From the sequence record LR597660: a stretch of 64,000 nt of DNA; one strand, 5' to 3'. Positions 17,932 to 23,476 of this stretch are shown here, piece by piece. Source of the stretch: Escherichia phage T4_ev151. Every line of letters starts with the position of its first letter. Position 1 is the first letter of the stretch. The notes below the pieces were generated by a model that saw only the letters and a program-made list of their open reading frames with translations, ran no database searches and was not told where the DNA came from. The position numbers and the translations under genes are program-made.

Positions 17932-20019
17932 TTATCCTTGAACGAACTTGTAAGGCATATTTGTAATATCTATGCAAGACGCAATAATTCCAAGAGATGA
18001 TTCTACTTTCTGTTTAACATTTGACGAAACAAATGATGCAAAGTCAACTCTATTTTCTATATAGCCTGTCATTGTAACCAATTCACCAGTTTCCATTAAA
18101 CGGTCTCCGTCATAGATTACCGATTCGGTGAGTTCTTCTGTGGTCATAACTTCAGCTTGAATGAGTTTTGTATTATTAGATGTTGTTCCGTCATTATTAG
18201 AAGCATCAGTTATTTTATTAACTTTGACCATCAATCCACGCGGTAGAATAACTTCAGCTTCAGTTGCTATTCCGAGATTTCCTGGATATACAACATTAAC
18301 TTTATGTGCGCCGTCAATAGCCCATCCTATTTGAACTTTAACGTATTCAGGATTTTCTTTATACGCTCTTATTTCGTTTGGATTAATAGTTATTCCTTCT
18401 TCATTTTTATCAACTGTTAATTCATTGCGAGCTTCTGGTTCTAAAAGACCAATACCAGCATGTGTAATTCCAAAACGTCCAAAAATGATAGGAGTTAAAG
18501 AAGTAGATACAAAATTTCTGAAATAGAATACTTTATTTTTAACTAGTGCTTCGTATATAGGAGCAGTCATACTTTGAGCACGATAAACTGTAATGCCTTC
18601 TGGTATACGATCACCATTTTCAAAAGCATAATCTAAATTAGTTATAGCAGCTTCAATTTCTTTTTCACTCATTACTTCATAACGTTCTGGATCATAACGA
18701 CCCAAAAGAAGATTATTGATGTCAGTATACCCTGAACCACAATACTCTCTAATGCCGCGCTTTTGTGATGGAGTATATTTAGAACCATCACGGGCAATAG
18801 TAATATCAATCATTGGACCTGCACCAATTCCAGAAAAACTATAAATCATTCTTTTGAGGAATTTAGTTTTTGCTGCGTTCCAGGAATTTTTAGTCATTTC
18901 TTCCCAGACTTCATCTGGCTGCCCTTTACGAGTTTTATTATGTTTATCAAGCCAATTATCTTTATATTCTTCAAAGAGTTGATTAACAGCTGCTGCGTAT
19001 TTCTCTAAACATTTTATTGAAGTAGTTGGTTCATTTTTAATTGCATTAAAAATTACTTCTTTAATTTTTTCTGAAACTTCACCGACTTGACTCATTGGAA
19101 AGAATTTATAATCATAGTGAAGTTCATCTGCCGTTCCTTCAGCAATAATTTTTGCTGCCTTTGTTTTAGAAGCTAATGAATTAATTCCAATTTTCATTTC
19201 TTCTGCTTCGGGAATTAAAGGTGCAGTAGCTGGTTTATTAAAATTAGCTGCTGTAGATTCATACTTCTGGAATAATTCACTTTCAAATCTAGAAGATTCC
19301 AATGATTGACTTTGCGCAATTGCTCTACGGGAAATTTTAACTTTAACGATTACAGCTTGGTCAGAACGTTTATCATTTTCTTGTGCAATAGATGCTGCAA
19401 TTGCCTCATTTTTAGTTACTTGAGCTCCAGTATCTTTATTGATGTAAACATCGCCGACTTTCGATTCAACTTTAGTAAAGAGCTCGGTACTAATTTCCGG
19501 AACTCCTGGAATGTCTTCTAGTGATACATTTTTGCGATGTATAAGAATATATGCATACTTTTTATCATAATCCCAGAGTTCCTTAAGAAGGACGTATCTG
19601 CCACCTGAACGGCTACGGATAAGTCTATCAGCAATAACTTGAATTTGTCGAGCTTGACCAGCGGTTTTAGACTTAAGAATACGAAGCATACAAGCATCAA
19701 TTTTATACTGACGCATTGTTTGCATTGCAACAGTAAAAACTGAATTGATATAATTAATTGGGCTTGGACCAAGACCTTTTAATTTAGCAATTGAACCTTT
19801 AGCAGTTAATGTAAAAGGAACAATGTGCATCATTTTATCGCCCATCTTTAAATCGCGATTAGTATCACCTCCAGATGTATAGGTACATAAACGAAAGCCT
19901 GGTTGTTCAATTGCATCATCAACATGAACTGAAAAAATTTGCGGTATTTTCTTCTTTGGATTTAAGTTTGTAATCGGAAGAGTAGTATCTTCGTCAAATA
20001 ATTCTGTAATGAGTTCCAT
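17932..20019 (-). CDS. alt: ADP-ribosyltransferase Alt (virion-packaged)
   Basis: 695 aa; position upstream of gene 30 and the late promoter; the N-terminal 125 aa are shared with the two downstream fragments; function from recalled T4 Alt. Confidence 0.85.
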   Translation of the reverse strand: MELITELFDEDTTLPITNLNPKKKIPQIFSVHVDDAIEQPGFRLCTYTSGGDTNRDLKMGDKMMHIVPFTLTAKGSIAKLKGLGPSPINYINSVFTVAMQTMRQYKIDACMLRILKSKTAGQARQIQVIADRLIRSRSGGRYVLLKELWDYDKKYAYILIHRKNVSLEDIPGVPEISTELFTKVESKVGDVYINKDTGAQVTKNEAIAASIAQENDKRSDQAVIVKVKISRRAIAQSQSLESSRFESELFQKYESTAANFNKPATAPLIPEAEEMKIGINSLASKTKAAKIIAEGTADELHYDYKFFPMSQVGEVSEKIKEVIFNAIKNEPTTSIKCLEKYAAAVNQLFEEYKDNWLDKHNKTRKGQPDEVWEEMTKNSWNAAKTKFLKRMIYSFSGIGAGPMIDITIARDGSKYTPSQKRGIREYCGSGYTDINNLLLGRYDPERYEVMSEKEIEAAITNLDYAFENGDRIPEGITVYRAQSMTAPIYEALVKNKVFYFRNFVSTSLTPIIFGRFGITHAGIGLLEPEARNELTVDKNEEGITINPNEIRAYKENPEYVKVQIGWAIDGAHKVNVVYPGNLGIATEAEVILPRGLMVKVNKITDASNNDGTTSNNTKLIQAEVMTTEELTESVIYDGDRLMETGELVTMTGYIENRVDFASFVSSNVKQKVESSLGIIASCIDITNMPYKFVQG

Positions 20020-20073: not shown

Positions 20074-20260
20074 AATAATCTATTGGTAAGAGAGTACGAT
20101 ATATTTCAAACTTTGGACCTTTTTCATAAGCATCAAAAGTTTCTGTGAATTTATTATAAGCATATGCATCTATAAATTCAATCATGATTTGTGATACAGA
20201 AGTAGAAACATCTCCACCTTCTTTTTGAGCCACGACAATTGTTTCTAAGTAAGCTTTCAT
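20072..20260 (-). CDS. hypothetical protein
   Basis: 62 aa; ATG overlaps the DNA ligase stop (ATGA). Confidence 0.6.
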   Translation of the reverse strand: MKAYLETIVVAQKEGGDVSTSVSQIMIEFIDAYAYNKFTETFDAYEKGPKFEIYRTLLPIDY

Positions 20261-21720
20261 AGACCAGTTACCTCATGAAAATCACCAAATACATCTTCGA
20301 ATGTATTAGCTTTAGTTTTATCTTCACGTAAACGAATCGCAATCGGAAGAAATAATTTAACGTAATCAGTGCGGCCATCAGATTTTAACCAACCGTTGCA
20401 TTCGCACTCTAGAATTTTTCCAATATAATAATTTTGGTTTTCCATAATGCGAGTACGGTCAAGTTCATGTGATTTTACACCGGCTTTATCTTTTAAGCCT
20501 GAACCAGCATTCACCTTAATTTTTCCACACTCTGACTCAAGAATAAATCCACCTGCTTTAGTAGGGTCTTTACGGTGAGGATAAATTCCTACAATTTTTA
20601 AATCAACATCAATTACTTCTTTAAATTTATAGAGATTTTTTGAACGAGCATTTTCCCATAATCCATCGATATTTTTGAGAATAATACCTTCAAGACCTTG
20701 GTCAATATACTTTTTATAAATTACCTTAGCTTCATCTAGGTTATTTACTACTTGGTTTTCAATTAAAATTACTTTATCATAACCTGATGTCATTTGTTCT
20801 AATTTAGAAAAACGGACATCATATTTCAAACGAAATGTAGGAAGACCGTATATTTCTATCAACGGTACATAATCCCAGACCTGAAACTTCATGCATTGTG
20901 CTTCTTTTTCAGAAATTGTTCCCTTTAAAGATTTATTGGCGATGCCATTAGAAGCAGTACGTGATTCAGCTACTTCGGCGAATTCTTTAGCTTTACTATT
21001 TTCAGGATAAGCATCAAAAAGAAAATCTAGGCCTTCTGGCTCCTTTTTAACTTGCTCATGGTATACCAATTCGCCATCAATTAACACACCTTCTGGATGA
21101 ATCTGGCGGGCTTCAGCGGTCATTTTGATTAACTCTTCCTTAAGAAGATCTAATCCTAGGTATTCATTACCAGCTCGTGATAAAAGACGAACATCATCTA
21201 ATTCATCACCTCTGACTTCAGCAAAGCACCGAGCCCCATCAGCTTTTAACTGGGCAAAGGCTGGAAATTTGATATTCTTATTAATGCCTTTTTCATCATA
21301 AGAACTTGCAAGCATTTGAGGTTGTTCAGGAATTAAACCTGGCCAAACTTTGTTTGCAATAGATACTGAAGCACCACATTCAAGGTCTCGCATCATCACT
21401 CGACGCAAAACTTCAACATCATCTTTTTTACCATCGGTGATATATCCAGTTAATTCCTCAATTGCTGCATTTCCAGTCAATTTCCGAGTAGCTAACGTGA
21501 ATTCAATAAAATCAAGCATATCGGTAAGAGTCAACATTCCAAAACTCTGGGTAGCAATACCAGGTTTAGGCCATTTCTTGATATAATACTGTAACCCACG
21601 AGAATAAGTCAGACGATATACTCGTTTAAGCAATTCATTATCTTTATTCTTTTCAAGAATTGCTTGCTTCTGCTTAGTTGAACCAATAGATGCTATTTCG
21701 TTCAGAATTTTAAGAATCAT
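20257..21720 (-). CDS. 30: ATP-dependent DNA ligase
   Basis: 487 aa; sequence matches recalled T4 DNA ligase including the KADG adenylation motif (..FAQLKADGARCF..). Confidence 0.95.
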   Translation of the reverse strand: MILKILNEIASIGSTKQKQAILEKNKDNELLKRVYRLTYSRGLQYYIKKWPKPGIATQSFGMLTLTDMLDFIEFTLATRKLTGNAAIEELTGYITDGKKDDVEVLRRVMMRDLECGASVSIANKVWPGLIPEQPQMLASSYDEKGINKNIKFPAFAQLKADGARCFAEVRGDELDDVRLLSRAGNEYLGLDLLKEELIKMTAEARQIHPEGVLIDGELVYHEQVKKEPEGLDFLFDAYPENSKAKEFAEVAESRTASNGIANKSLKGTISEKEAQCMKFQVWDYVPLIEIYGLPTFRLKYDVRFSKLEQMTSGYDKVILIENQVVNNLDEAKVIYKKYIDQGLEGIILKNIDGLWENARSKNLYKFKEVIDVDLKIVGIYPHRKDPTKAGGFILESECGKIKVNAGSGLKDKAGVKSHELDRTRIMENQNYYIGKILECECNGWLKSDGRTDYVKLFLPIAIRLREDKTKANTFEDVFGDFHEVTGL

Positions 21721-21986
21721 TGTTCATCCTTTAGAGTTTGGTTTACAGCTCTATTATAAATCAATTCATCATTAAGCTCAGTCAAAGACCTGTGGTACGT
21801 TGTTCTAACTTTATTTCCTTGCATCCAGTGCTTGACGTAAATGAAACCTTGCTCTACACATTTTTTAAAAATTCGTTCGTCTTTTTGAGCTCGGAATTCT
21901 GGATTGCATCTAAAAAATTGATTTACGTGACCGTAATCACGTGTAGTATTACCTTCATTTTCATAAATAGTGTGAACAACAAACAT
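21717..21986 (-). CDS. hypothetical protein (T4 30.1 position)
   Basis: 89 aa; ATG verified; overlaps neighbours by 1-4 nt. Confidence 0.65.
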   Translation of the reverse strand: MFVVHTIYENEGNTTRDYGHVNQFFRCNPEFRAQKDERIFKKCVEQGFIYVKHWMQGNKVRTTYHRSLTELNDELIYNRAVNQTLKDEQ

Positions 21987-22822
21987 TAGAATGCTCCTTG
22001 GAAAATATTATCACCACTAGTAGGTCTATTATACAAATACTCTATGCCACCGGGTTTAATATAATTCCATGTCTGAAACGGATGCGTCTGATATGGATGA
22101 TATGGATTATAAGGATTAAATCCAGGAGTTCTCCAGGTAGTGTTCCAAGGAAAAGAATCGTTTTTAATCATCTTCTCGATTGCATCTTTTATAGCTTTTT
22201 CACTATCAAAACTTTCTTTATTTTCCTTCGGTGAAAAAAGCTTATTTTCTACATCATTCCATGTATAAACTCGCTGTGCAGTTTTTGGAATACTGTCACG
22301 CTCCCCTCGAGCCATCCAATAAACAGGAACATTTAATATTTCACTCGCGTGATCGCAGTGGTGAGCGAGATCGTCAATATAACAAATTACGTTATATTTT
22401 TCTTTTGCCTTTTTGAACAGCTCTTCTTTTGAAGAATCATGACCACACATCATTACTTCTGAGAAGGCACCAGGAAAAAGAGCATTCAAATTAAATTGAC
22501 GATTCAGCAGAGCGTCAATAGAATCACCCAATGCTGTAACAGCTACAAAATTATAATCTTCTTTTAATTTGTTAATTACACACAGAGCATCTTTATATGG
22601 AGACAAGTAACGAATAAAATCTGAACGATTGTATTTTTCAATTAACTTGACGCCAAGTTCTTCATCACAATTAAAGAGTTTACCAGGAGAAATAAATTTC
22701 TCATCTTGGATCATTTTTAAAATATGTTCTAACGGAAGATTATATTTCTGAGCAAAATAAGGAAGACCTGATTGCCAGCTTAAACATACTCCATCAATAT
22801 CAGTTAAAATAGTAGGCTTCAT
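21986..22822 (-). CDS. HAD-superfamily-like protein (T4 30.2 position)
   Basis: 278 aa; N-terminal ILTDIDGV (DxDG motif I of HAD phosphatases); C-terminal NPYNPYHPYQTHP repeats. Confidence 0.65.
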   Translation of the reverse strand: MKPTILTDIDGVCLSWQSGLPYFAQKYNLPLEHILKMIQDEKFISPGKLFNCDEELGVKLIEKYNRSDFIRYLSPYKDALCVINKLKEDYNFVAVTALGDSIDALLNRQFNLNALFPGAFSEVMMCGHDSSKEELFKKAKEKYNVICYIDDLAHHCDHASEILNVPVYWMARGERDSIPKTAQRVYTWNDVENKLFSPKENKESFDSEKAIKDAIEKMIKNDSFPWNTTWRTPGFNPYNPYHPYQTHPFQTWNYIKPGGIEYLYNRPTSGDNIFQGAF

Positions 22823-23277
22823 AGAGAGTCTCTTAATAGGTTTAACACATCAATAAATTCAGCTTCGGTTAGTATTGTATCATCTTTTGTTAGACCACTA
22901 GCCATGCTGTGCTTCAAAACTTTTCCTTTCGAGGCTAGTAATGCATCACGAAAGCCCTTGTTTTGGATTGCTGCTTCAAAATATGCATTTGTGTATAATT
23001 CTTTCCACGCTGGGGAGTATCTTGAAAACGGAACTCCAAGCCAGAAGAGGGTCCCACGGTCCTGAGCTCTAGCATAAGACCTTCCAGCTTGTTGGGCGGC
23101 AAGCCCGGATAACCCAAATATACGTCTTTGCTGTTCAACATTTTTCACCTTACATCCTTGGAGGAATCCTTCAAGACCTCCAAATTGAATGCCATCCATA
23201 ACGAAAGGCCATTGGGCAAAATTACTTAATGCACATGATGGCCATTTAAAATTGCTTCTAATCTCTAACTCAGACAT
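22819..23277 (-). CDS. NADAR/YbiA-like domain protein (T4 30.3 position)
   Basis: Track start is TTG; first ATG gives ~152 aa MSELEIRSNFKWPSCALSNFAQWPF...; LSNF motif and size resemble NADAR (DUF1768) proteins; assignment from memory. Confidence 0.55.
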   Translation of the reverse strand: MSELEIRSNFKWPSCALSNFAQWPFVMDGIQFGGLEGFLQGCKVKNVEQQRRIFGLSGLAAQQAGRSYARAQDRGTLFWLGVPFSRYSPAWKELYTNAYFEAAIQNKGFRDALLASKGKVLKHSMASGLTKDDTILTEAEFIDVLNLLRDSL

Positions 23278-23476
23278 TTTCAATACTTATAATTTCAACA
23301 TCAGCCCAATGACCATAGTTTGGTAGACGAAATTCAACTGGCCAGTCACTGCCTTTTTCTAATATAATAGACTTAACTTGTGGTTCTTCGTGTTCATCAG
23401 TATACGGATTTTTATCTGTTACTTTATATGTTACCTTAATGTACTGAATTCCAAAAATCTTATTAATTATATTCAT
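23270..23476 (-). CDS. hypothetical protein
   Basis: 68 aa; ATG verified. Confidence 0.55.
   Translation of the reverse strand: MNIINKIFGIQYIKVTYKVTDKNPYTDEHEEPQVKSIILEKGSDWPVEFRLPNYGHWADVEIISIENV

Follow-up and report, generated by a model that had tools for sequence, protein, structure and literature searches.

Two minus-strand ORFs in the 64,000-nucleotide stretch of Escherichia phage T4_ev151 DNA analysed here (LR597660; hereafter the window) were identified as genes 30.3 and 30.2 of a T4-like phage. The reading preferred, at a probability of roughly 0.88, is that gene 30.3 is adfN, encoding an anti-DarTG1 enzyme, and that gene 30.2 encodes an enzyme of the HAD superfamily that stands outside that mechanism. 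An initial annotation, made from the DNA alone, had proposed an HAD-phosphatase-like protein beside a NADAR-like candidate for counter-defence against DarT-type toxins. The NADAR and anti-DarT parts of that proposal are correct and already known; the window holds one more intact allele of the gene and no new biology.

The ORF list confirmed both reading frames at 21986-23277, a span that is exactly that of the two genes and agrees with the coordinates first given for them (Table 1). Gene 30.3 is listed as an ORF of 154 aa with a TTG start (22819..23283, minus strand); the ATG at 23277 yields the 152-aa protein MSELEIRSNFKWPSCALSNFAQWPF..., the form quoted in the initial annotation. The 30.4 stop and the adfN start overlap by 8 nt, and the adfN stop and 30.2 start share the sequence ATGA, as read from the DNA at each junction. 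Gene 30.4 and adfN belong to one tightly packed transcription unit, and gene 30.2 is translationally coupled downstream of adfN. The order along transcription is 30.4, 30.3, 30.2, 30.1, ligase, alt.1 and alt, and since the whole block is read from high to low coordinates, 30.2 and 30.3 lie upstream of the ligase gene. Their earlier placement downstream of DNA ligase is true only of plus-strand coordinates and was corrected.

Both genes belong to the early-gene block extending from 30.7 to alt in a Tequatrovirus (T4-like) genome. Many Tequatrovirus genomes share 97-98% identity with the window DNA. The Alt protein of this phage is only 70% identical to T4 Alt. The 152-aa protein matched Pfam family PF08010 with E = 4e-70 and 234 bits, against a score cut-off of 36 bits, and the 278-aa protein matched phrog_420 with E = 3e-93. 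Given these matches and the identity to Tequatrovirus and T4 sequences, neither ORF is due to chance. A promoter and terminator scan of the locus returned counts near those of shuffled controls. A plausible sigma-70-like site with 11 of 12 matches was observed at 24462-24433 on the minus strand, falling in the 3'-terminal part of 30.8, ahead of 30.7.

Table 1. Genes, domains and conserved residues at the 30.4-30.2 locus and its neighbours (window coordinates).
Feature	Position	Strand	Description
Gene 30.4	23270..23476	(-)	68 aa, phrog_2042; directly upstream of adfN
Gene 30.3 (adfN)	22819..23277	(-)	152 aa + stop; predicted NADAR-fold DNA ADP-ribosylglycohydrolase, anti-DarTG1 counter-defence (function from T4 orthologue, PMC11825919)
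Codon E36 of AdfN	23170..23172	(-)	Invariant in family; aligns with YbiA E48 (BLASTP, hhalign); putative catalytic Glu of the E-G-F-L-Q-x-x-K motif
Codon K43 of AdfN	23149..23151	(-)	Invariant in family; aligns with YbiA K55 (BLASTP, hhalign); putative catalytic Lys
Codon H123 of AdfN	22909..22911	(-)	Invariant; in last strand of the model (120-123); marker of the phage gp30.3 NADAR clade
C-terminal helix of AdfN, residues 138-152	22822..22866	(-)	Intact, sequence as in T4; modelled helix 138-151
Gene 30.2	21986..22822	(-)	278 aa + stop, ATG start, begins MKPTILTDIDGV; predicted HAD-superfamily phosphatase-like protein
HAD catalytic domain bearing a helical cap insert, residues 1-200	22223..22822	(-)	Modelled: strand, DxD, helical insert 16-72, Rossmann-like strand-helix repeats
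HAD motif I, D8-I-D10-G-V12	22787..22801	(-)	Predicted nucleophile and general acid/base Asp; D8 and D10 invariant in 44 close and 45 distant members
HAD motif II, T96	22535..22537	(-)	At least 90% conserved in 44 close relatives; end of strand 91-96
HAD motif III, K132	22427..22429	(-)	Invariant in close and distant alignments
HAD motif IV, D150-D151	22370..22375	(-)	Both at least 90% conserved in 44 close relatives; end of strand 145-150
C-terminal extension of gp30.2, residues 201-278	21989..22222	(-)	One helix, then disordered Pro/Tyr/Asn/Trp-rich tail
DNA ligase	20257-21720	(-)	Neighbour on the strand of 30.2 and 30.3
Alt	17932-20019	(-)	Neighbour on the strand of 30.2 and 30.3

The window 30.3 protein is equal in length to T4 gp30.3 and identical to it at 149 of 152 residues (98%), and the three substitutions (K11R, L114Q and M125I) all fall at sites that vary within the family alignment. 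When an AF2 model of the protein (pLDDT 82, pTM 0.80) was compared with the PDB using Foldseek, the first three matches were YbiA (2b3w; E = 2e-4, TM 0.62), the NADAR protein of Geobacter lovleyi (8bat) and that of Phytophthora (8bau); the remaining matches had probabilities of 0.06 or below and none was credible. Alignment of the gp30.3 family to the YbiA family by hhalign gave a probability of 95.8% (E = 8e-9, 100 columns). The description of this ORF as NADAR-like is upheld by that profile link and by credible structural matches to NADAR proteins only. Profile searches gave a divided answer, in that PF08010 was matched strongly and PF08719 lay beyond the reach of the window protein alone. 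Three of nine gp30.3 family members matched PF08719 weakly (best E = 0.003), and several YbiA homologues carry PF08010 and PF08719 together. No significant match was obtained in a single-sequence search of PDB sequences, the sole NCBIfam match was a weak one to the YbiA-type riboflavin N-glycosidase model (E = 0.15), and none of the PADLOC defence models matched gp30.3 or gp30.2. From the model and alignments, window AdfN displays the alpha+beta fold, catalytic E/K motif and profile link to YbiA/PF08719 that are features of the NADAR superfamily.

E36, K43, H123, the C-terminal helix and the position of the gene between 30.4 and 30.2 are all common to T4 AdfN and the window allele, which differs by its three substitutions and by its residence in another Tequatrovirus with a divergent Alt. 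DarG1-type NADARs (8bat) and E. coli YbiA (2b3w) resemble AdfN in fold and in the E...K catalytic motif, and NADAR antitoxins have guanine-ADPr hydrolase activity in common with T4 gp30.3 (PMC11125620). The catalytic residue of the last strand, by contrast, is Asp in the DarG1 type, Glu in the YbiA type and His in AdfN, the His at the position of H123 being the signature of the phage gp30.3 clade (PMC11125620). YbiA and DarG1 NADARs are assigned to PF08719, whereas AdfN is filed separately in PF08010. AdfN further differs from DarG1 as an orphan: no darT ADP-ribosyltransferase gene adjoins it, the flanking genes being the orthologues of T4 30.4 and 30.2. Window gene 30.3 is an orphan NADAR gene, in agreement with published accounts, and not half of a DarTG1 toxin-antitoxin pair.

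T4 gp30.3 was named AdfN and described in 2024-25 as a guanine-specific DNA ADP-ribosylglycohydrolase (Johannesman et al., Nat Commun 2025, PMC11825919; PMC11125620) that is necessary, and also sufficient, for DarTG1 resistance. Deletion of adfN renders T4 and T2 sensitive to DarTG1 and abolishes plaquing, ectopic adfN rescues phage RB69 on DarTG1, and the purified protein strips ADP-ribose from DarT1-modified DNA (PMC11825919). The E36A variant of T4 AdfN has no in vitro activity and rescues only partially in vivo, rescue by K43A is likewise only partial, and in RB69, a DarTG1-sensitive phage, a frameshift removes the last 15 residues of the protein (PMC11825919). In an independent transposon screen of T4 on DarTG1, 30.3 had a log2FC of -7.25 with an adjusted p = 0 (HIDEN-SEQ preprint, bioRxiv 10.1101/2025.11.20.689424). 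The predicted anti-DarT counter-defence had thus already been demonstrated for an orthologue of 98% identity by deletion, rescue, purified enzyme and transposon screen. In vitro, T4 gp30.3 was shown to hydrolyse guanosine-ADPr and to leave thymidine-ADPr intact (PMC11125620). Since AdfN is specific for guanine-ADPr it counters DarT1 and not DarT2, and the prediction of DarT-type toxins as the target holds for the first of these only.

T4 AdfN has no antitoxin action against DarT1 in uninfected E. coli (PMC11825919, PMC11125620), where it cannot replace DarG1 as the antitoxin (PMC11825919), and it performs poorly for T5 and Bas25 (PMC11825919). These results indicate that AdfN activity needs a T-even context, and its discoverers proposed that AdfN may require a further T-even protein (PMC11825919). 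From the 98% identity we infer that the window allele would act like T4 AdfN. During infection the enzyme would hydrolyse the N-glycosidic bond joining ADP-ribose to guanine in phage DNA, so that the modification made by host DarT1 would be undone and replication could proceed in DarTG1-carrying cells. Catalysis would involve E36 and K43 of the EGFLQxxK motif together with the clade-specific H123. Full activity requires the C-terminal helix; the window protein is full-length and retains it, unlike the RB69-type truncation.

The window 30.2 protein is 98% identical to T4 gp30.2. Its model is confident over residues 1-200, with pLDDT below 50 at 228-234, 240-259 and 265-278, and the model and alignments together reveal a Rossmann-like HAD core fold and the four catalytic motifs. 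Residues D8, D10, W16, R108 and K132 are invariant in the family, both among the 44 close and the 45 distant relatives; in the distant sample D151 is conserved in at least 90% of members and D150 is the consensus residue, outside those listed at that level. Many homologues, at 200-220 aa, lack the C-terminal tail or have a different one, and the extra regions of longer relatives (258-660 aa) contain no Pfam domains. The family is very widespread in phages, its members forming some 1,500 clusters when grouped at 50% identity. Window gp30.2 matched none of the HAD models of Pfam or NCBIfam at E <= 1, a weak NCBIfam match to thiamine diphosphokinase was judged spurious, and a single-sequence search of PDB sequences found nothing significant, the marginal lead being mouse cdN (2jao). 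Because no curated HAD profile was matched, membership of the superfamily rests on the fold, the motifs and transitive links. The HAD-phosphatase-like call for this ORF therefore stands on the fold and four motifs, though not on a Pfam HAD match by the window protein.

The Pfam families that recur among gp30.2 relatives are NT5C, HAD_2 and Hydrolase, with sub-threshold to moderate scores. NT5C (PF06941) was matched by 8 of the 44 close and 12 of the 45 distant relatives (best E = 3e-9), although not by window gp30.2 itself. The best combination of identity and coverage for the model was with the 5'(3')-deoxyribonucleotidase-like protein 3bwv (22% identity, 165/168 residues), and cdN and mdN were also recovered. 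Identity to the NT5C deoxyribonucleotidases cdN/mdN and their bacterial relatives (2jao, 2i7d, 1q92, 3bwv) is only 16-22%, and gp30.2 differs from cdN/mdN by its extra 80-residue, largely disordered C-terminal tail. The family profile matched mouse cdN 2jao weakly (E = 0.015) over the N-terminal half only, and W16 aligned with the Phe that follows motif I in that enzyme. It is probable that gp30.2 is an active phosphatase. It would be a phosphomonoesterase that depends on Mg and has a small phosphorylated metabolite as its substrate, for which a (deoxy)nucleoside monophosphate is the likeliest candidate. Assignment of a nucleotide substrate is tentative, and is suggested by the NT5C sequence links, the correspondence of W16 with the Phe of cdN and a cap that points to a small molecule. 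In published T4 transposon sequencing 30.2 was non-essential, with 72 of 72 TA sites hit, and was not depleted in minimal medium (log2FC -0.10).

Several other accounts of the locus were weighed. One holds that gp30.3 acts mainly on soluble substrates, either riboflavin-pathway intermediates or low-molecular-weight ADP-ribose immune signals, DNA de-ADP-ribosylation being secondary. YbiA-type NADARs are N-glycosidases of riboflavin intermediates, which is where the weak NCBIfam match falls, Iyer et al. (2022) saw soluble ADPr derivatives as the targets of most phage NADAR activity, and in uninfected cells AdfN fails to detoxify DarT1. Against this, two independent studies found that without adfN plaquing on DarTG1 is lost completely and specifically, the purified protein but not E36A takes ADPr off DNA, and published T4 transposon data for 30.3 in LB versus M9 show no phenotype (log2FC 0.12). 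The soluble-substrate account is already largely refuted and appears very improbable. Slightly less so, but still improbable, is a two-enzyme module in which the HAD phosphatase processes the released ADP-ribose product or is itself the T-even factor of AdfN. The ATGA overlap and tight packing would suit such a module, as would the suggestion of an additional T-even protein in the AdfN paper; 20 of 30 viral loci, some of them with an AdfN identity of only ~40%, have a 30.2-family gene no more than about 1 kb from 30.3, and the two families are nearly alike in host distribution (roughly 1,500 phage records). However, adjacency in close relatives reflects shared ancestry and is not independent evidence, and in 8 of 15 distant loci no 30.2-family gene was found within 6 kb of 30.3. 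For the rescue of RB69, adfN on a plasmid is enough, and on a DarTG1 host T4 30.2 was not depleted (71 sites, log2FC -0.12, p = 0.61; bioRxiv 10.1101/2025.11.20.689424), compared with the drop of 7.25 log2 units for 30.3. The transposon-screen data and synteny rule out 30.2 and 30.3 as an obligate pair, and gp30.2 has no part in the anti-DarTG1 mechanism. In the same T4 screen alt had a log2FC of -0.01 (bioRxiv 10.1101/2025.11.20.689424) and was rejected as a functional partner against DarTG1. Iyer et al. (2022) had pointed out the early expression of T4-like NADAR genes together with ADP-ribosyltransferases, and the proposed "ADP-ribose-centred neighbourhood" is apt as a description, with alt nearby. 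Since 30.2 and alt are dispensable on DarTG1, and since 30.3 often occurs without 30.2 in distant phages, it amounts to synteny and not to a demonstrated functional module.

Besides 30.3, just one gene was significant in the DarTG1 screen, the second-ranked 30.4 (bioRxiv 10.1101/2025.11.20.689424), homologues of which are confined to T-even phages of E. coli, Shigella and Yersinia. Its overlap with the adfN start, its depletion on DarTG1 and the T-even restriction of its homologues make gp30.4 a possible helper of AdfN. The combined proposal that AdfN needs this helper, as opposed to a mere polar effect, and that gp30.2 is separately an independent nucleotide-directed phosphatase for counter-defence or pool editing was considered unlikely. 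Similarly little weight was given to gp30.2 as a nucleotide-pool or anti-defence nucleotidase that is independent of AdfN and analogous to T5 Dmp. Dmp depletes dAMP and thereby blocks the dITP signalling of the Kongming defence (Kongming study), and so provides a precedent for a phage nucleotidase as counter-defence. Like gp30.2 it is phage-encoded and early-expressed, with a HAD-type DxDGT motif of its own (DLDGT, in which D22 is essential). NT5C deoxyribonucleotidases are the nearest sequence family to gp30.2, which contains the helical cap insert and carries an invariant aromatic residue, W16, at the position of a Phe in mouse cdN; 30.2 is an early, non-essential accessory gene adjoining a proven anti-defence gene, and T4-like phages encode the dNMP kinase (T4 gene 1, gp1) named as the trigger in the Kongming study. 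The structural neighbours of gp30.2 nevertheless span many HAD specificities, and T4 transposon data assign 30.2 no phenotype in LB, M9 or DarTG1 conditions. A literature search on gp30.2 found no papers, queries for 30.1, 30.2 or 30.3 with bacteriophage T4 returning irrelevant numeric matches only, and the searchable text of the Kongming preprint contains no mention of T4-like phages. In terms of detectable homology, gp30.2 was rejected as a relative of Dmp: hhalign gave a probability of 1.4% with only the DxDG region of motif I aligning, and the two proteins have no significant profile similarity and no Pfam family in common.

The preferred reading, an adfN allele followed by a gene for a HAD-superfamily enzyme with no role against DarTG1, recovers from the sequence by itself a result for which genetic and biochemical work had been needed. 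In T4-like phages an orphan NADAR enzyme of the bacterial, antitoxin type erases the ADP-ribose marks that DarT1 places on phage DNA.

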